From the IMG/VR virus record IMGVR_UViG_3300030047_000010: DNA of 64,000 nt, one strand, 5' to 3'. A program made the position numbers and the translations under genes. The stretch comes from a virus. Lineage: Duplodnaviria > Heunggongvirae > Uroviricota > Caudoviricetes. Below are positions 3,580 through 31,988 of this stretch, piece after piece (the first letter of the stretch is position 1; each line of letters begins with the position of its first letter). The notes under the pieces are model-generated. The model was given only the letters and a program-made list of their open reading frames with translations. It made no database searches and was not told where the DNA came from.

Positions 3580-5322
3580 TTACGATTTCGCTATCTTATG
3601 TTCAAAACCAAACAACTTAAACTCTGGATTCTCTTGTTCTAGATATGAACACCCAAAGAGAATTCTAGTCGGTGCTACTTTACCCATATTAGGAAAAGCC
3701 ATAAATGTTTTAGTTACTAGAGGGGATCCATTTATATCTATGCGCATTTGACGTAAAGAATCATCCCAATATACAATTGTTTTATATGTAACACCATTCT
3801 CTAAGGGTATCAAAGATGCAGATGATACTTCCGCAAAGGTCCCAGCAGCATCTACTAAGCGAGCAACAAACAAACCTACTCGTGTGTGCTTTAGTACAAT
3901 TCCGCTCTTACCTAAAGAATCTCGTGTATCAAATAGTATCTGGTCACCAGCAGGGTCTGGTGCTCCCTCATAGAGTGGAGCCCATGTCACCTGCATGGCA
4001 CCAAAATCCATCTCAGCTAAGTATGACGACGAAGGTAGGTAGATTAATTGATCCCTTTGACGTGTGCCACCAGAGGGTATTCTAGTAGATGCTGTTTTGC
4101 CGTATTCCACCTGAGGGAAACCAAGCCCAAGCATGAATCTATCACCGGGATTGAAATTTGATACACGCAGAAGCAGTTGAACGTAACCGGCAACGGCTGT
4201 CGCAGAGGTCTCTTTGCACCAATTCACTTCATGCACATTAACATTCTTTATGTCTGTGTATGCTAGCTGCTTGGTGCCCTCAAATAAAACAGCGGACCCT
4301 GTAGCTGAAATAACTTGAAGCACTAATTCAAATTTTAGACGATCTGCGTCATCTGAGTTAGCATAAACAAACATTGAACCTGTTACAGTATTCCCATCAA
4401 AAGCAACTTTATCGCTCCTCCAGGTCCACGTGGAATTTATCTGCTTCGGTGAGGATGCTGTAAAAAATGCCATTCTGTAGGCATCGCCAAAAGCAGTAAA
4501 AACCTCACGAGTTTCAACAACGACCGGGTCATTTAGAGAATCCCATGTACCATAATTAACATTCATACCTGCATGTGGCAGCAAATTACTAGCAGTACTT
4601 TCTAGGAATACAGGCATGCCCAGATCCCAAGGGGCCGTATCTTCATCCTGGTATATAATACTTGAAGTACCTACTAAGAAACGGTTCCCACCACCAGCAT
4701 AGATTAACGTACCATCATCATAACGAAGCAAGGGCTGATCTGTGAAGTTCATTTGAACTAACGGTGTCTCAGCCAAGTCGTCCAAGGCCCGAATAGCTAC
4801 GGTAGCCGGGGCTTTATGCTCCCACGATACATCCTGCGAGCTGCTTAGATGACCAACACGCTGATTTTGATTATGGATGCGTGCCTGATTTTCATCAGTA
4901 AGTAACGGTATGTCCTTAAATACTGTTGTACCATCTTTTAATGTCAACTCACAAGCTACCCAAATTTGCTCATCAGGTGCTCCAGGTGAAGTCATATAAA
5001 ATCTATAGGACTTATCATATCTTTGACAAGATGGTTCAAAATCAAGACTGCGCAAAAGGGTGTCTGTCTGGCATCCAGGTTGAACCCTATAAAGCCCCAA
5101 GGTACCAGAGGCTATAGATGAAAAGGACAGCCCGTCAGAGCGCTGTCCAACTAGTATCTCAAGTGAATCAATGTCGTTTCGGAAAAACGCGCTAAGTCCG
5201 AATTCCTGATAAGACTGTAGTGCAGGTTTATTCTCAGTAACGGCTACAATAGAAGTTTGCGAAAAAGGACGAGCGCCTGCTGACTTAACAAAGTAACCTA
5301 AGCTATTCGGCAGACTCGACAT
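3580..5322 (-). CDS. putative virion/tail protein with carbohydrate-binding and LamG-like C-terminal region
   Basis: PQVEYGKTASTRIPSGGTRQRD resembles the Q.E.G..ATSYIPT...TR..D motif of phage tail/lectin proteins; beta-rich C-terminus. Confidence 0.5.
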   Translation of the reverse strand: MSSLPNSLGYFVKSAGARPFSQTSIVAVTENKPALQSYQEFGLSAFFRNDIDSLEILVGQRSDGLSFSSIASGTLGLYRVQPGCQTDTLLRSLDFEPSCQRYDKSYRFYMTSPGAPDEQIWVACELTLKDGTTVFKDIPLLTDENQARIHNQNQRVGHLSSSQDVSWEHKAPATVAIRALDDLAETPLVQMNFTDQPLLRYDDGTLIYAGGGNRFLVGTSSIIYQDEDTAPWDLGMPVFLESTASNLLPHAGMNVNYGTWDSLNDPVVVETREVFTAFGDAYRMAFFTASSPKQINSTWTWRSDKVAFDGNTVTGSMFVYANSDDADRLKFELVLQVISATGSAVLFEGTKQLAYTDIKNVNVHEVNWCKETSATAVAGYVQLLLRVSNFNPGDRFMLGLGFPQVEYGKTASTRIPSGGTRQRDQLIYLPSSSYLAEMDFGAMQVTWAPLYEGAPDPAGDQILFDTRDSLGKSGIVLKHTRVGLFVARLVDAAGTFAEVSSASLIPLENGVTYKTIVYWDDSLRQMRIDINGSPLVTKTFMAFPNMGKVAPTRILFGCSYLEQENPEFKLFGFEHKIAKS

Positions 5323-25789: not shown

Positions 25790-26437
25790 CTAAGGAACAG
25801 TATTGTTAAAGAATTCAATGATCAAAACACCCATCTGATCGCGATTGCTGGTATATAGAAACATGTCTTTACAGGATATTCGGCTATGCCGAATAGTAGG
25901 TGATTCAAATACACGTTTCAACAGATGCTCAAAGTCTTGTACGTCTTTCTTATGTCGCATAGTTGCCTGCAAATCTGCCGTTACAGCGAGAAGAACTTGA
26001 CCATGGTACTTCAAGCTCTGCTGCACTAAACTAAAAATAGCCTGCAAATTGCTTAGAAGCTCCGGCCCAAAAGTAGATGTATACAAATCGTAAACGATGT
26101 ACCTAATTGGATCGCGATACTGTAGACAGAACTCACGCCAATCTTGACAGAAGAACTGAGCTTTTGGGAATTTAGTGCGGCACTGCTCGATGTTCTGACG
26201 TGATCCTGCAATATCCCTAGGGTTCTTGTCTAACCCAATCAGGCTAGCTTCATCTATACGCCCGGTTGCTAGTAATGAATCAAATGTTAAAGCACCTGCC
26301 CCAATGGGCTCAAGCCACTTACCATGGAAATCACCAAGAGAATGAATATCGAATTGGCCCTGAACATACTTGCGGTATTCCTGCTTGCCATGAGAAGCAT
26401 AAACAAACTCAGGTGACGTTGTCTTAGTCTTAGGCAT
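25790..26437 (-). CDS. putative class I SAM-dependent methyltransferase-fold protein
   Basis: WLEPIGAG (motif I-like), LIGLDKN, FFCQDW, YIVYDLY at Rossmann strand spacing. Confidence 0.5.
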   Translation of the reverse strand: MPKTKTTSPEFVYASHGKQEYRKYVQGQFDIHSLGDFHGKWLEPIGAGALTFDSLLATGRIDEASLIGLDKNPRDIAGSRQNIEQCRTKFPKAQFFCQDWREFCLQYRDPIRYIVYDLYTSTFGPELLSNLQAIFSLVQQSLKYHGQVLLAVTADLQATMRHKKDVQDFEHLLKRVFESPTIRHSRISCKDMFLYTSNRDQMGVLIIEFFNNTVP

Positions 26438-28602
26438 CCAAGACTTCTCCTATATGTAGTTCCTGTATGATACTAGCAGTGTGCTGAGAAGCAACTACAG
26501 TCATTTTGTCCTTATAGATTCTGTAGAATTTATAGGCGGACCTCTCTTCTAGATCAGAAGAAATCTGGGGTAGCCTTCCATGCGCCTTCACCCAAGATGC
26601 CAAAGGTACAAAACGCTGAAGAGTTAGCAAGGTACCATTGTTACAAACAAGAGGATCATTCCAGTTATCAGCAAAAATGCGACTAGACAACCCAGCAGCA
26701 TCTAACAGCGCACGAGCCTCTAAACTGGGACGTTTAACTGCGGGCAGCACCGTACTGAGCAGATTACGCAGCCGAAACTCTTCAAACGATGGGTAGTTGA
26801 TATGATCGTCACGACGAAGGCTACCCGTGCTGAAAGCCTGAACTAGACCGTCAGCTTTTTCCAGATCTGTCCTGTCTCTAAGTTTCTCCCAGCGATCAGA
26901 CCACTCGGTCAAAACGCGACTATCAATAGTTGTCACAAACTGATCTATTTCTTCATCAGCATACTGCTCTGCAAGCATATGAAGGTAAAAGTCGGCAATC
27001 TCAAATGACGGCGTACTTCCCGGCTTATGCTTTCCGCCTTTGTGATTTCGTGTACGCCGTTCAATGATAGACTCCATGTGCTCCAATAACTTATCAGGAT
27101 GATTCTTAAGCTGTTGATACATAGCCAATTTAACAACGTTTGAGTCCATTCCATACTGCTGAATTAGCTTAGGAAGAGTTACTCCTTGCTGAGTCTCATA
27201 GGCCAGCGTAACTTGAGCATCTAAGTCGGCAAGAGCCTCACACATAGTTGTTTCAGCGTCATCTTCCAAGGCATCCGCAAATTCAGCATAACTTTGTGCT
27301 AATTTAATATCACCTGAATTGTCTGCTTGCCGCCTGCGCATACGCAGTTCGCCGATCATAGCTTTGATTGGTGGCAGAGTAGCAGCAGCTAAAGGATTCT
27401 CTGTTCGGAGAATGTACTTTAGAACATCACAGGAAAATTCTATCAGGGCGCCAGCAGCCGAAGAAGTATGGAATATCTGTTTAGACTTAAATCTAAACTG
27501 CACAGGCAGATATCCTTCAGGTTTCTCGCGAAGAGTCCTACCCGGAATCTGAACGCTAAGAATAGAGGACTTCGGACGAACAAAGTATTGAATACAGGCT
27601 AGCCTGGGATCATCCACACCCTCACGGTATTTGCCTGTGGTTGGCGTGAATTGAATATCGTGATAGGTATCACCACGGCACTCTTTGGTGATAATATCTG
27701 TCTTAGAATCGCCCAGAGTATTCAACAAAGAAATATCTGTACGTGGCACAAGTTTGTAGCACTCGTCTATGATCTTATCGACGTATTCCTCCGTTGTACC
27801 GCAAGCCCGGCATGACGGTGTAGCAGGTACAACAACAAGACTCTTGACTCGATCATTTGCTAAAAACGTCTCAATCGTTTTACGTGCCACAAACTCAGGC
27901 GAAGGGAGTCCGTTCTCCATAGGCCAGATATCGCTATAGATGATCTCATTTTCCAGGCGAGGTGCAAAGCCTTCTTCAATATGCTGACTAAGCGGACGTA
28001 TACGAGACTTTGTCTTATTCTTTAAGATGAACTCCCACGAACCGGTAGATACAAACGGCGTTGCTGTCAGTAGCAGCATTCGAGCACCTTTATCTACAGC
28101 ACACTGTACGACACTCGTCAGGTTATTCAGCATTAAGGTGATGTGCTTCATCAACTACAATAAGTAAATCTGAGCAGTCGTCCAACTGCTCAAAAGCATG
28201 AGCATCTTCAGCTTTTGCGTTAGCCAAAGATGCGTGACATGCAATATAGGCACCCACACGATCTGTCTGCAGCATAGCTAGAAGAGCACCATCTGTTGTC
28301 TGAAAGTCTAGTGGCCGAACGCCACCGTTCTGAAGCCAGCTAAACGAGTCAGACGTATACGTTACGCCGTAGTCCCGATCACGTGCAAACCCAAAACGGA
28401 TTGCTATCAATGGTGTCAGTACCAGAATTTTCTTGATCCCTAGACTAGGACATTCCAGAGCAAACCGACTAATCAAATGGGCCTGCATAGACTTTCCTGC
28501 ACCCGGTGGCTGCCCAATCAACAAATGTGGACGCTGCGGATTAGCCAGTACATGGAAAGCCCACGTAAGTGTCTCTTCCTGATACTTGCGAAGCTTTTTC
28601 AC
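26430..28602 (-). CDS. SF2 DExH helicase (Res/RadD-like) with helicase-associated C-terminal domain, split by a +1 frameshift at ~28125
   Basis: ORF 28123-28617: LRKYQ, GQPPGAGKS (Walker A), IVVDEAHH (Walker B). ORF 26430-28154 continues with LLLTATP (III), REGVDDP (V), QIPGRTLR (VI) and LASWVKAHGRLP (HA-like). Confidence 0.85.
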
Positions 28603-28603
28603 T

Positions 28604-30520
28604 TTAATCAACAGCAATCCCCTGGCCAGAAGTCAACGCAGCCTTTCGCAGTAACTTAGCTTGCTTACGGGCTTCTTTCTGAGTTAATGCTTCACCAAAT
28701 CTGCGTAAAGCATCCGTTCCTGACTTAGCTCCAAGAACAAGTTTTGGGTGATCAAACGGAATATACAGTAGACGGGTAGGTGCATTAGCAACAACATCAT
28801 CACACATTGTAGCACCAGTAGAAATAACATGACCGCAGCTACAGGTGTGCAGAGGATCATAGTCAGAAGAGACCACGATCACGTTCTTCTGCATAGTAGC
28901 AGCAGACGCAACAAGCATGCTACGCAATGTTCCAGCAGCTAGCTGATGTGTGAACCTGTTGATATTGCGCCGTCGGATAGCGCAGCCACGCCATCTGCGA
29001 GGCTTCTTATCTTTGTCCTTCTCCCCATCTTTCTTTGTCTTTGCCTTTGCCTTGAAACCTTCGTTCAAAGGAATATCTTGAATGACAAATGTAGTTGCTT
29101 CTGATGCTACCCAGGAATGCACAATGTGCCGTCTTAAGTTTGTCAGTATACCAGCACTACGAGCATGCAACATAGATAGCTCAAACTTGGCTTTACGATG
29201 ATTCTTAGATTTCATCCTCACGGAGAACCCACAAGAACACTTAAAAGTGTTAAGATCAGCAACAGCTTCGTCTGAGGCAACTGCGCCACAAATAGGACAA
29301 ACGTGTGTAGTCTTGAACGTCTGGCTAGCTCGCTTATGCAGCTCATACTTACGAGAAACCTCACGCTGCTTCATGACAATAGCGTTTTGATTCTTTTCAT
29401 ACTTCTTAGCCAGAGCGGCACAATTAGGATAGCTAGTTACAGAACGAAGAGCATCAAGACTCCGCATCATCCGGAATCCGGTACTAGTTGTAATAGCGGC
29501 TGGACGAAAATCAAGTGCCATAGTTTTATTAATGTCAACAGGATACAACACAGGACTATGGTTGGTATCAATAGTAATACTAGTCCACCAACGCCCAGTA
29601 CCATCAACTGCTACAGTAATCTGTTGACCTACGGACATCCCAATAACACGCCTAGCTGAGATAGCCTGTGTAATTTCTTTGGCTGATCCCGTGAGAATGT
29701 CAACATAAGCACAAAATTGAACAGTAAGTGCAGGGGTAATCTTAAGATTACCTAGTTTACCATTGATAAATGCGGAAGGTTTCTGCGCCTCTAAAATAAA
29801 GCTAGAGGTACGAGATCTGAAATTCGGGAAGTTCTCTACCTTTTGAACAGATTCCGGATCTGTGTACGTAACAATGTGTGTTTTAGTAGATTCACGTCTA
29901 CGAGAAACAAGAAAGTTGCCGTCTTTCTTAGAAAGACGATCTGACGTGTAAATGCTTTTCTGTGCTTGGCTAAGGCGTTTGGCTACTGTCGAATTAAATG
30001 TAGTCGCTGGAATTCCCAAACTTGCGTCATAAGCAGGGTGTGACTTATTCAAGCGCCGAATAGCACCAGCAAGAACAGTCATGTCCTCTCTAGAGAGACG
30101 TGGCCAGATCTTTTTCTCATATTCTGTGCGCATTTTTGCTAAACCTAAAACAAACGTATCATGTTTGCCACGCATCTTCTCTAGGCTATCCAGAATCTTA
30201 TTTTGTTTACATTGTGTGCCTGGCCGTTTTTGCAGCTCTTCCAACTCCAAAGTAAGAATAGCTTGTTTCTTCTCAGTATCACTAAGAAGAGCCAGTACGC
30301 GATGCTCTAGCCACACGTCAATGTCACCCATATCAAACAGCATCTTATCCGTAAACAACCATTCAAGCGCATCATTGTACATGCACCGAGTTGCCCAAAG
30401 AAAAGTAAACAACTTGTCTCTCTGATCTTTTGTTGGATACAGCTCAAACTTATAGGACTTAGTCGTTCGCACATCACCCGGAGCAGCGCCCAAGATTGGA
30501 GTCTTTTTGCGAATAGCCAA
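28604..30520 (-). CDS. TnpB/Cas12f-like RNA-guided effector with degenerate RuvC
   Basis: N-terminal KSYKFELYPT...ATRCMYNDAL (IS605 OrfB/TnpB-type); RuvC-I MALDFR; RuvC-II FVIQDI; TCSCGH; adjacent to CRISPR array; TTG start with GGAGA RBS. Confidence 0.85.
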   Translation of the reverse strand: MAIRKKTPILGAAPGDVRTTKSYKFELYPTKDQRDKLFTFLWATRCMYNDALEWLFTDKMLFDMGDIDVWLEHRVLALLSDTEKKQAILTLELEELQKRPGTQCKQNKILDSLEKMRGKHDTFVLGLAKMRTEYEKKIWPRLSREDMTVLAGAIRRLNKSHPAYDASLGIPATTFNSTVAKRLSQAQKSIYTSDRLSKKDGNFLVSRRRESTKTHIVTYTDPESVQKVENFPNFRSRTSSFILEAQKPSAFINGKLGNLKITPALTVQFCAYVDILTGSAKEITQAISARRVIGMSVGQQITVAVDGTGRWWTSITIDTNHSPVLYPVDINKTMALDFRPAAITTSTGFRMMRSLDALRSVTSYPNCAALAKKYEKNQNAIVMKQREVSRKYELHKRASQTFKTTHVCPICGAVASDEAVADLNTFKCSCGFSVRMKSKNHRKAKFELSMLHARSAGILTNLRRHIVHSWVASEATTFVIQDIPLNEGFKAKAKTKKDGEKDKDKKPRRWRGCAIRRRNINRFTHQLAAGTLRSMLVASAATMQKNVIVVSSDYDPLHTCSCGHVISTGATMCDDVVANAPTRLLYIPFDHPKLVLGAKSGTDALRRFGEALTQKEARKQAKLLRKAALTSGQGIAVD

Positions 30521-30546
30521 CGTTCATCTCCAAGTTCAAATAGGGT

Positions 30547-30594
30547 AAAACAAAAAGATCCCTGCCTAGGTTTTATTTCGCACCTAGGCAGGGA
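30547..30594 (-). terminator. intrinsic terminator
   Basis: 12-bp perfect stem TCCCTGCCTAGG/CCTAGGCAGGGA (30559-30594) followed on the minus strand by TCTTTTTGTTTT. Confidence 0.8.
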
Positions 30595-30730
30595 CTTGTG
30601 TGTGAATTTGGCAGCCGTTTCGCTAGGTTACCCTAGCAGCGAAGCCCTCCAGTGAGTTCTTCTTCGGACTGTTAACGAGGACCTGAAATACCCCCCGGCA
30701 TTGATTTAGAGTCGCTGTGCTCGACTTGTA
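30548..30730 (-). ncRNA. candidate tracrRNA/scaffold RNA (~180 nt)
   Basis: Own promoter, GNRA-capped hairpin (30622-30637), 10-nt anti-repeat (30599-30608), terminator; no ORF. Confidence 0.6.
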
Positions 30731-30736
30731 GAACAA

Positions 30737-30764
30737 AATATAGTTCAAAAAATTTGTTTGTCAA
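30737..30764 (-). promoter_or_regulatory. sigma70-type promoter for the candidate tracrRNA
   Basis: TTGACA-N16-TATATT on the minus strand. Confidence 0.7.
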
Positions 30765-30815
30765 GCTTAAATTTTAGTCAAATACAAAATCACGGCGACT
30801 GCCCAATGGTACAAG

Positions 30816-31360
30816 GTTTCAATTCACACATGGGTACAAGCTCCTGGATGTCAATCCAGATATGCGAACTGTAAGAGTTTCAATCCACACAGGGGTACAA
30901 AGTACTACCCAAATTTCTCCGCCAACTAATCTGCCGCCATGTTTCAATTCACACATGGGTACAAAATGCTACTCTGGCCAAAGCCTCTCGCACGACCTAG
31001 CGTTGTTTCAAGTCACACAGGGATGCAAAGTGCTACTTGTCAGGAATTGTCGGAGCGGCTGTCGAGAAGTTTCAATTCACACATGGGTACAAAATGCTAC
31101 GGGCGATCCAACGTCGTTAAGCCTGTCAGCGAGTTTCAATTCACACATGGGTACAAAGTGCTACCCATTAGCTAATGCCTTATTAAGACAATACCTCGTT
31201 TCAATTCACACATGGGTACAAAGTGCTACGAAGGAGCTTGGGTGGGATCGAGGGTATACTCGGTTTCAATTCACACATGGGTACAAAGTGCTACCCGCCT
31301 CAAGCTGTCGGCATGCATGGTCATACTTGTTTCAATTCACACATGGGTACAAAGTGCTAC
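30816..31360 (-). CRISPR. CRISPR array, 9 repeats and 8 spacers
   Basis: 32-nt repeat GTAGCACTTTGTACCCATGTGTGAATTGAAAC (minus sense) at + starts 30816, 30877, 30941, 31005, 31069, 31133, 31198, 31263, 31329; spacers 32-34 nt (about 29 nt next to the eroded terminal repeat); degeneracy increases leftwards. Confidence 0.97.
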
Positions 31361-31434
31361 CGCACTAGGTACAAACACACACTGTCAAAGAGCGAACAGG
31401 AGGTAATTCGCTAACCAACTGCTTCGTATTACGA

Positions 31435-31462
31435 AATATACAAGCAAAGCCAAAAATGTCAA
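31435..31462 (-). promoter_or_regulatory. CRISPR leader promoter
   Basis: TTGACA-N16-TATATT on the minus strand, ~75 nt upstream of the first perfect repeat. Confidence 0.65.
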
Positions 31463-31520
31463 GATAAACTCAAAAATTTCCAAAAATAGTCATCGCTAAC
31501 CTACCGGCATTGACGTGGAA

Positions 31521-31988
31521 CTACAGGTTAGCGATCCCCGAGATCCCCCGCAGTACACTAGTCCAGTCTGGGTACTGCAACGAACCGAAGTTTAGGAGAT
31601 ACCCATGGAACTCGGTCTGCTTATTAGAGTCGCATTTATCATCCACAAGAATGTCCCCGCGTAACAAGCTTTTGTCGTGAGCAATTATTAGGTCTGTACA
31701 AGCATCAAAGCCGAAGTGACGCTCTATGCTCATCCGCTTTTCTGTGTAGCACATGGGATTACGCACAGATGGAGCAGTTAAGAACAAGACACGGTGGCCT
31801 TGCTCTCTAAGAGTGTCATAAGCCTGTAGCGCTCCAGTGATCGGTCGAAGTCCCAGAAAGAATCCTATCTGTGACTGAGGAAAGGGTTGTGCCGGATTAT
31901 CCTCTAGAGCTTGACGGTAGGCCCCTGTAAAGTCAAACAGAGTATCATCCATGTCTATATAGATGGTCAGATATTTTGGCATATGCAT
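31521..31988 (-). CDS. 5'(3')-deoxyribonucleotidase (NT5C-like HAD)
   Basis: IYIDMDDTLFDF, FLTAP, DKSLLRGDILVDD. Confidence 0.85.
   Translation of the reverse strand: MHMPKYLTIYIDMDDTLFDFTGAYRQALEDNPAQPFPQSQIGFFLGLRPITGALQAYDTLREQGHRVLFLTAPSVRNPMCYTEKRMSIERHFGFDACTDLIIAHDKSLLRGDILVDDKCDSNKQTEFHGYLLNFGSLQYPDWTSVLRGISGIANL

Follow-up and report, generated by a model that had tools for sequence, protein, structure and literature searches.

A candidate tracrRNA with two putative anti-repeats in the phage-borne CRISPR locus of a divergent TnpB/Cas12-fold effector

Introduction

Cas12m (type V-M) uses crRNA and is not known to have a tracrRNA, and the scoutRNAs that serve Cas12c and Cas12d have only about 3 to 5 nt of complementarity to the repeat. 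In Cas12b, Cas12f1, Cas12g, and Cas12l, a long repeat/anti-repeat stem is combined with a pseudoknot that contains a short stem of 5 to 7 bp, and the dual RNAs of Cas12e and Cas12k include a triple helix (PMC11246509). Cas12m, a small Cas12 from mobile elements, blocks transcription and leaves its target uncut (PMC11656645). A 2025 update of the classification counts about 50 independent events leading from TnpB to type V systems, with repeated inactivation of RuvC and repeated origin of tracrRNAs (PMC12669027).

The locus described here lies in a 64,000-nt window (the whole stretch of DNA that was analyzed) of a virus record of 375,537 bp, which has direct terminal repeats and is rated complete. 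On the minus strand, the promoter of a CRISPR array is followed by the array, a second promoter of the same type, a candidate RNA, and the ribosome-binding site (RBS) and gene of the effector (Table 1). Like the RNAs of Cas12b, Cas12f1, Cas12g, and Cas12l, the candidate is a separate structured RNA of roughly 150 to 200 nt encoded beside an effector of TnpB/Cas12 fold, with a long anti-repeat near its 3′ end and a putative 6-bp short anti-repeat in an internal loop, complementary to the spacer-adjacent nucleotides of the repeat. It differs from them in having no sequence or Rfam match, in accompanying an effector that is not a scored member of those subtypes, and in a long duplex that is only 10 bp in the phage and is followed by a terminator hairpin directly before the effector RBS. 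The three-dimensional pseudoknot, moreover, is predicted from the sequence of the phage RNA rather than observed.

Other described systems share some traits with the locus. The position of the RNA between the effector gene and the array, and a Cas12 with naturally substituted RuvC residues, recall Cas12k (type V-K); however, Cas12k has a triple helix (PMC11246509), whereas the phage RNA would form a short-stem pseudoknot, and the phage locus has an SF2 helicase and a conserved protein of ~215 aa as neighbors instead of Tn7 genes. Cas12m is among the best structural matches of the phage effector (8PM4 and 8HHL), but the phage family has a conserved candidate tracrRNA. Complementarity to the repeat is more extensive than in scoutRNAs, amounting to 10 nt plus 6 nt for the phage RNA and reaching about 27 nt among its relatives. 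The omega-RNA (reRNA) of TnpB serves as scaffold to a protein of the ancestral fold; the phage RNA, in contrast, precedes its gene instead of overlapping the 3′ end, an array of repeats and spacers supplies the guides, and the phage locus showed no transposon ends. Cas12r of Thermus phages, which has an active RuvC and no tracrRNA, is unrelated in kind. No description of this effector family or system was found in the literature searched.

Results

Transcription unit of the candidate RNA

Positions 30521 to 30816 hold no open reading frame (ORF) of 60 aa or more, and the stretch with the candidate RNA, which is noncoding, lies outside the array and within the CRISPR-cas locus. No Rfam covariance model matched this interval at E values up to 1. 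The initial annotation had proposed a tracrRNA of ~180 nt here, with a TTGACA-N16-TATATT promoter, an AGTCG/CGACT hairpin near the 5′ end, an anti-repeat of 10 nt, and a 12-bp stem with a U-tract, and each of these elements is present (Table 1). The promoter belongs to the standard class of the phage (TTGACA-N16-18-TATAWT), which has 43 copies in the genome compared with 0.76 expected. Promoter-like hexamers were read by eye in the same relative place in four related loci (L012, L013, L016, and L022).

The terminator hairpin, with a folding energy of -27.5 kcal/mol, was missed by our scan, which allowed loops of at most 8 nt compared with the 10 nt found here. Its end lies 17 nt before the effector RBS, and no promoter was predicted between the two. 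An equivalent hairpin with a U-tract was found in L013, L015, L016, and L020 (five of seven loci, including the window) and is absent from L012 and L022, where the RNA extends to the start codon of the effector gene, with the anti-repeat abutting it. The whole spacer between array and effector folds better than its own shuffles on both strands (z of about -3.7), so that folding energy alone does not give the strand of the RNA. The strand is fixed by hairpin P2, since one G-U pair that is invariant in all loci is possible on the minus strand only. The reading of this stretch as a tracrRNA of ~180 nt, whose expression is predicted, is supported mainly by the similar RNAs in related loci and by their complementarity to their own repeats.

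Table 1. Coordinates of the features of the CRISPR locus in the window and of compared features in related loci
Feature	Locus	Coordinates	Strand	Description
Array leader promoter, TTGACA-N16-TATATT	Window	31435-31462	minus	Same type as candidate tracrRNA promoter
CRISPR array	Window	30816-31360	minus	9 repeats of 32 nt, GTAGCACTTTGTACCCATGTGTGAATTGAAAC; spacers 29-34 nt
Candidate tracrRNA promoter, TTGACA-N16-TATATT	Window	30737-30764	minus	-35 at 30764-30759, -10 at 30742-30737; predicted start near A30729
P1 hairpin	Window	30710-30726	minus	AGUCG/CGACU, 7-nt loop; arms 30726-30722 and 30714-30710
P2 hairpin	Window	30676-30697	minus	CGGGGG/UCCUCG; 10-nt loop contains UUUCAG (30688-30683)
P3	Window	30612-30671	minus	Closing helix CAGUC (30671-30667)/GGCUG (30616-30612) around variable insert
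Conserved CYAAA motif, then long anti-repeat	Window	30599-30611	minus	Anti-repeat AAUUCACACA (30608-30599); pairs with repeat positions 18-27
Intrinsic terminator	Window	30547-30593	minus	12-bp stem (30593-30582/30571-30560), 10-nt loop, U-tract AUCUUUUUGUUUU (30559-30547)
RBS and effector gene	Window	28604-30531	minus	GGAG at 30531-30528; TTG start at 30520; 638 aa, TnpB/Cas12 fold
Helicase and ~215-aa genes	Window	25790-28617		
Helicase and ~215-aa genes	L012	3120-5916		
Helicase and ~215-aa genes	L013	5773-8617		
Helicase and ~215-aa genes	L022	2357-5148		
~215-aa gene only	L015	1631-2224		
Extent of long anti-repeat	Window			10 bp
Extent of long anti-repeat	L012			About 24-27 bp
Extent of long anti-repeat	L022			12 bp plus flanking stretches
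Extent of long anti-repeat	L016 and L020			10 bp plus 3-4 bp across bulge
Extent of long anti-repeat	L015			7 bp plus flanks
Extent of long anti-repeat	L013			8 bp plus flanks

CRISPR array

The degenerate repeats of the array are those distant from the array promoter. In the last repeat (window positions 30780 to 30847), the 5′ third (CCAGGAGC) is unrelated to the consensus. Immediately after this repeat, in the same interval, CTTGTACCATTGGG resembles CTTTGTACCCATG of the repeat and may be the remnant of one more decayed repeat. A pre-crRNA that is read through beyond the array would carry the anti-repeat in cis. The spacers had no targets in the phage's own genome or in GenBank phages or plasmids, the sole match being one of 23 nt with an E value of 0.1.

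Related loci

Of 1.8 billion cluster representatives, an exhaustive HMMER search returned only nine as relatives of the effector. Six further loci (L012, L022, L013 [= L014], L015, L016, and L020) were obtained from the contigs of representatives and from one RNA-motif match, namely, L020, which was found by a metagenome scan with the P2 motif of the RNA. The comparative set thus consists of seven loci from about five lineages, with L013 aligned by eye only and with decayed effector genes in L015 and L022. The effectors of L012, L022, L013, L015, and L016, which were aligned, have 23 to 34% identity, and that of L020 was read from its translation. Scans with the P2 motif also gave three chance matches in coding sequence in IMG/VR (L017 to L019) and one chance match in genomes (L021), all of which were rejected. 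L002 and the P0005 contig come without upstream DNA and so have no RNA region to compare. Word-index protein searches with the effector and with the family alignment recovered only the query and one fragment, and scans of IMG/VR, for which three proteins and the repeat served as queries, gave no match.

In five of these six loci (L012, L022, L015, L016, and L020), the same RNA immediately precedes the effector gene. The sixth, L013, has only a divergent RNA with the same order of elements, which was matched by eye and whose homology rests on that order and on its anti-repeats. A 104-aa gene parts this RNA from the array, which indicates that the RNA travels with the effector gene and not with the array. 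Five of the six loci have a repeat-spacer array that precedes the effector and shares its strand. In the exception, L016, the only repeat lies downstream of the effector (L016:3550-3740) and has a TTGACA/TATATT promoter to itself; the sequence 3′ of this repeat runs into the RBS and start codon of the next gene, making it a solo repeat unit and not an array. In L022 (positions 1 to 2357), the effector gene is broken into ORFs of 178, 59, and 338 aa, and the repeats of the array are highly degenerate; despite this decay, the helices of the candidate tracrRNA and both anti-repeats are intact.

A covariance model built from six loci scores 75 to 105 bits on the same sequences, a range that is circular by construction. 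More informatively, it recovers a single copy from the phage genome; it misses the divergent RNA of L013. Contigs of four DNA runs that were compared with the locus contained only short identical fragments, so that no variation could be read from them. Among the runs listed for the locus and for the RNA by itself, none was of RNA.

Conserved helices

P1 is a helix of 4 to 5 bp (AGUCG/CGACU in the window and AGUUU/AAACU, AGAUG/CAUCU, and GGAGG/CCUCC in other loci) that pairs fully in six loci by a scripted check and in L022 by eye. Its double changes are U-A/A-U, C-G/U-A/G-C, and G-C/U-A. The consensus of P2 is CGGGGN(N)/(N)NCCUCG. The closing helix of P3 covaries among CAG:CUG, CAU:AUG, and CAAU:AUUG. 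A GCTAGG-GTAA-CCTAGC hairpin that had been noted as GNRA capped on the minus strand is present at 30637 to 30622, with its GUAA loop on that strand only. It falls inside the P3 insert, a region that varies between relatives, and is therefore lineage specific and outside the conserved core.

Once the rows are registered manually, pairing in P1, P2, P3, and the terminator is 100% in six loci in the scripted check, with compensatory changes (P3 was not identified in L013, and L012 has no terminator), and L022 fits the same helices when read by eye. In the model alignment, 88% of the cells pair compared with 77% in shuffles, none of 500 of which reach 88%; when the partners are slid, the share drops to 37 to 48%. 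In both the MAFFT and the covariance-model alignments, P1 of three loci and P3 of L015 are out of register by a single column.

Long anti-repeat

The segment AATTCACACA (30608-30599) is perfectly complementary to TGTGTGAATT (positions 18 to 27 of the 32-nt repeat) in all but two of the nine repeats; in one of these two the long duplex has a mismatch and in the other a G-U pair. By our own estimate, about 0.006 10-mers this complementary would be expected in the spacer by chance. Only 3 of 2,000 shuffles of the 17-nt anti-repeat segment pair as well, and the 10-nt pairing is part of the minimum-energy structure when the RNA is cofolded with the repeat.

Across loci, pairing was tested in the segment after the CYAAA motif because the G-rich arms of the terminator confound duplex prediction with the whole RNA. 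The repeat of the same locus was the best partner of this segment in five of six rows. Of 2,000 shuffles, those that equaled pairing with the own repeat numbered 3 for the window, 0 for L012 and L022, 1 for L016 and L020, and 2 for L013. L012 and L022 have anti-repeats that are near full length (24 to 27 bp) with respect to their own repeats, and L015 has the weakest, equaled by 71 of 2,000 shuffles.

Putative short anti-repeat in the P2 loop

The P2 loop sequence UUUCAG could form six contiguous base pairs with UUGAAA, the tail of the repeat before its last base and the spacer. At the sequence level, six contiguous pairs between loop and tail occur in all seven loci, with compensatory changes in L022 (loop UUACAG with tail UUGUAA) and L013 (loop CUUUAA with tail UUGAAG). 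Judged by these pairings, the P2 loop is a second, short anti-repeat, which was absent from the initial annotation. The loop could instead pair with the A-rich CYAAA motif of the same RNA, but this intramolecular alternative offers only 3 to 5 bp in a varying register. The long and short anti-repeats compete for the UU of the repeat.

Effector and neighboring genes

The effector was implied to be a Cas12f in the initial annotation, and this assignment did not hold. The protein has an N-terminal HTH_OrfB_IS605 domain and scores below threshold with Pfam Cas12f1-like_TNB (22.7 bits; cutoff, 26.3) and with the NCBIfam profiles for C2c8 (15; cutoff, 350) and TnpB (26; cutoff, 100). Its structure model, of moderate confidence (pLDDT of 64), matches TnpB, Cas12m, Cas12f, TranC, Cas12p, and Cas-lambda about equally, and Foldseek ranks TnpB, Cas12m (8PM4 and 8HHL being among the best), and Cas12f alike, with TM scores of 0.2 to 0.36. 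The RuvC-II motif is VIQD, whose Q stands in place of the E of L016 and L020, so that the D-E-D triad is not intact, and the zinc finger has lost its second CxxC. Because of the subthreshold profile scores and the RuvC substitution, we made no type V-F assignment; the effector is a divergent TnpB/Cas12-fold protein, not a demonstrable Cas12f.

The start of the effector is uncertain. TTG at 30520 has a good GGAG RBS, and an in-frame GTG 16 codons downstream (window positions 30470 to 30520) would give an N terminus like that of the relatives (M, 2 to 6 aa, and TKSYKF).

The effectors of the window, L012, L022, and L013 carry Q or T in place of the RuvC-II glutamate, those of L012 and L013 also having H at RuvC-I, and downstream of each lie genes for an SF2 (ResIII/DEAD) helicase and the conserved ~215-aa protein. 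The helicase has about 705 to 731 aa and is split into ORFs of 164 and 574 aa in the window. The ~215-aa protein, with 41 to 44% identity, is better conserved than the effector (23 to 34%), and L015 has kept its gene while losing the helicase and the C terminus of the effector. L016 and L020 keep D-E-D, and no helicase adjoins their effectors, the L020 contig ending early. RuvC status thus tracks gene neighborhood in this set, with a substituted RuvC-II found beside a helicase and D-E-D found without one.

Discussion

The region most probably encodes the tracrRNA of a phage-borne, TnpB-derived, type V-like CRISPR system, with two anti-repeats that engage the 3′ half of the repeat. From the elements, the covariation, and the locus-specific complementarity seen in the sequences, we infer a transcript, its ends, its binding to the effector, and a processing route. 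The RNA would be transcribed from its own sigma-70-type promoter, starting near 30729 and ending at the terminator near 30548, for a length of about 180 nt. It would fold into hairpins P1 and P2 and helix P3 around a variable insert, as the covariation suggests. Its 3′ segment AAUUCACACA would pair with UGUGUGAAUU in the repeat, and UUUCAG in the P2 loop would pair with UUGAAA 5′ of the spacer in a pseudoknot-like contact. Both contacts would fall on the 3′ half of the repeat, the part that is kept as the 5′ handle of a Cas12-type crRNA, and the resulting dual RNA may be the scaffold bound by the 638-aa effector. The duplex might also mark the pre-crRNA for trimming. Trimming by host RNase III would be plausible for the 24- to 27-bp duplexes of relatives and is doubtful for the 10 bp present here. 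Since no promoter is predicted between the terminator and the RBS, the effector mRNA is probably produced by terminator read-through, and the tracrRNA would then be in excess of the protein.

That dependence on read-through would also be compatible with a role of the RNA in cis, as a 5′ leader or attenuator of effector mRNA that only sets the amount of effector, perhaps in response to pre-crRNA pairing at the anti-repeat beside the terminator stem, and does not act in trans in the effector complex. A strong terminator so near the RBS would suit such a leader, as would the anti-repeats of L012 and L022, which abut the start codon and make the RNA a 5′ UTR there, and the fact that in all seven loci it is the effector gene, not the array, that the RNA accompanies. 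However, neither a 6-bp loop contact nor a segment of 8 to 27 bp that tracks the repeat of each locus would be required of a leader, and pairing at two sites matches the known dual-RNA scaffolds of Cas12 effectors. We therefore consider it improbable that the RNA acts as a leader and not in trans; a leader role and a tracrRNA role are in themselves compatible and not mutually exclusive.

The brevity of the long pairing bears on another possibility, namely, a scoutRNA-like cofactor that binds the effector and contacts the repeat briefly, with the crRNA cut by the effector or other nucleases and with no need for a stable duplex or RNase III. The 10 bp in the phage and the 7 to 10 contiguous bp in L013, L015, L016, and L020 point in this direction, and the phage genome has no match to Pfam PF14622 (Ribonucleas_3_3), the sole RNase III family searched. 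Yet pairing of 10 to 27 bp plus 6 bp far exceeds the 3- to 5-nt limit of scoutRNAs, the anti-repeats of L012 and L022 span nearly the whole repeat, and the RNase III of the host would be available, all of which makes a scoutRNA-like cofactor an unlikely explanation. We give still less credence to a nonfunctional relic, whether an inverted repeat fragment or a decayed omega-RNA scaffold of TnpB, that is complementary to the repeat by descent only. Decay is evident at these loci, in that the arrays look static and partly degenerate, adaptation genes are missing nearby, and two relatives have decayed effector genes; a relic would nevertheless not be expected to keep its helices by compensatory changes across effectors that have diverged to 23 to 34% identity, to have anti-repeats that track changes in the repeat, or to retain a promoter and terminator in several lineages.

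Beyond the tracrRNA assignment, it is possible, if rather speculative, that the RNA is the scaffold of a dual-RNA-guided, nuclease-dead, non-cutting Cas12 that marks DNA for the downstream SF2 helicase and the ~215-aa protein, which is methyltransferase-like, and that the same RNA serves as the 5′ leader of the effector mRNA, with read-through coupling guide supply to effector synthesis. If true, a non-cutting Cas12 acting with a helicase would be a type V counterpart, in jumbo phages, of the helicase-dependent type I and type IV systems. The family itself offers a natural series in which to ask how an RNA-guided nuclease turns into a binding-only module, with an apparently intact RuvC triad found without the helicase and a substituted RuvC found with it.

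The phage lineage fits the picture of repeated type V origins (PMC12669027) and adds another case of tracrRNA use in a TnpB-derived lineage. An origin of tracrRNA and crRNA by splitting of an omega-RNA fits a lineage in which L016 and L020 keep D-E-D. As the design of the tracrRNA is itself known, the RNA alone is useful rather than surprising, and the effector family is rare. The candidate tracrRNA, its two anti-repeats, and its likely ends are a prerequisite for reconstitution, for the design of a single-guide RNA, and for finding the PAM.

Several further observations concern the distribution and the surroundings of the locus. Short contigs identical to parts of positions 30400 to 31500 were found, in small shares, in bioreactor, wastewater, and freshwater runs besides peat runs; the phage or a near-identical relative may be widespread, which we take as a lead only. 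A motif, GGTTAGCGA(T/A), occurs around the array promoter (window positions 31492 to 31535 and 31408 to 31419) and again in L013 (L013:2860-2905 and 2978-2990) and L016 (L016:3497-3545 and about 3613-3622). Two inverted copies, ATCGCTAACC ... GGTTAGCGAT, immediately precede the promoter, and a single copy lies in the leader. As these three phage loci are otherwise divergent, the motif may serve as an operator or as a conserved terminator or leader signal. Finally, a 15-nt direct repeat (13 of 15 positions identical) links 30690 to 30704, which covers the linker and the 5′ strand of P2 in the candidate tracrRNA, with 31499 to 31513, where the second copy lies in a hairpin upstream of the array promoter.
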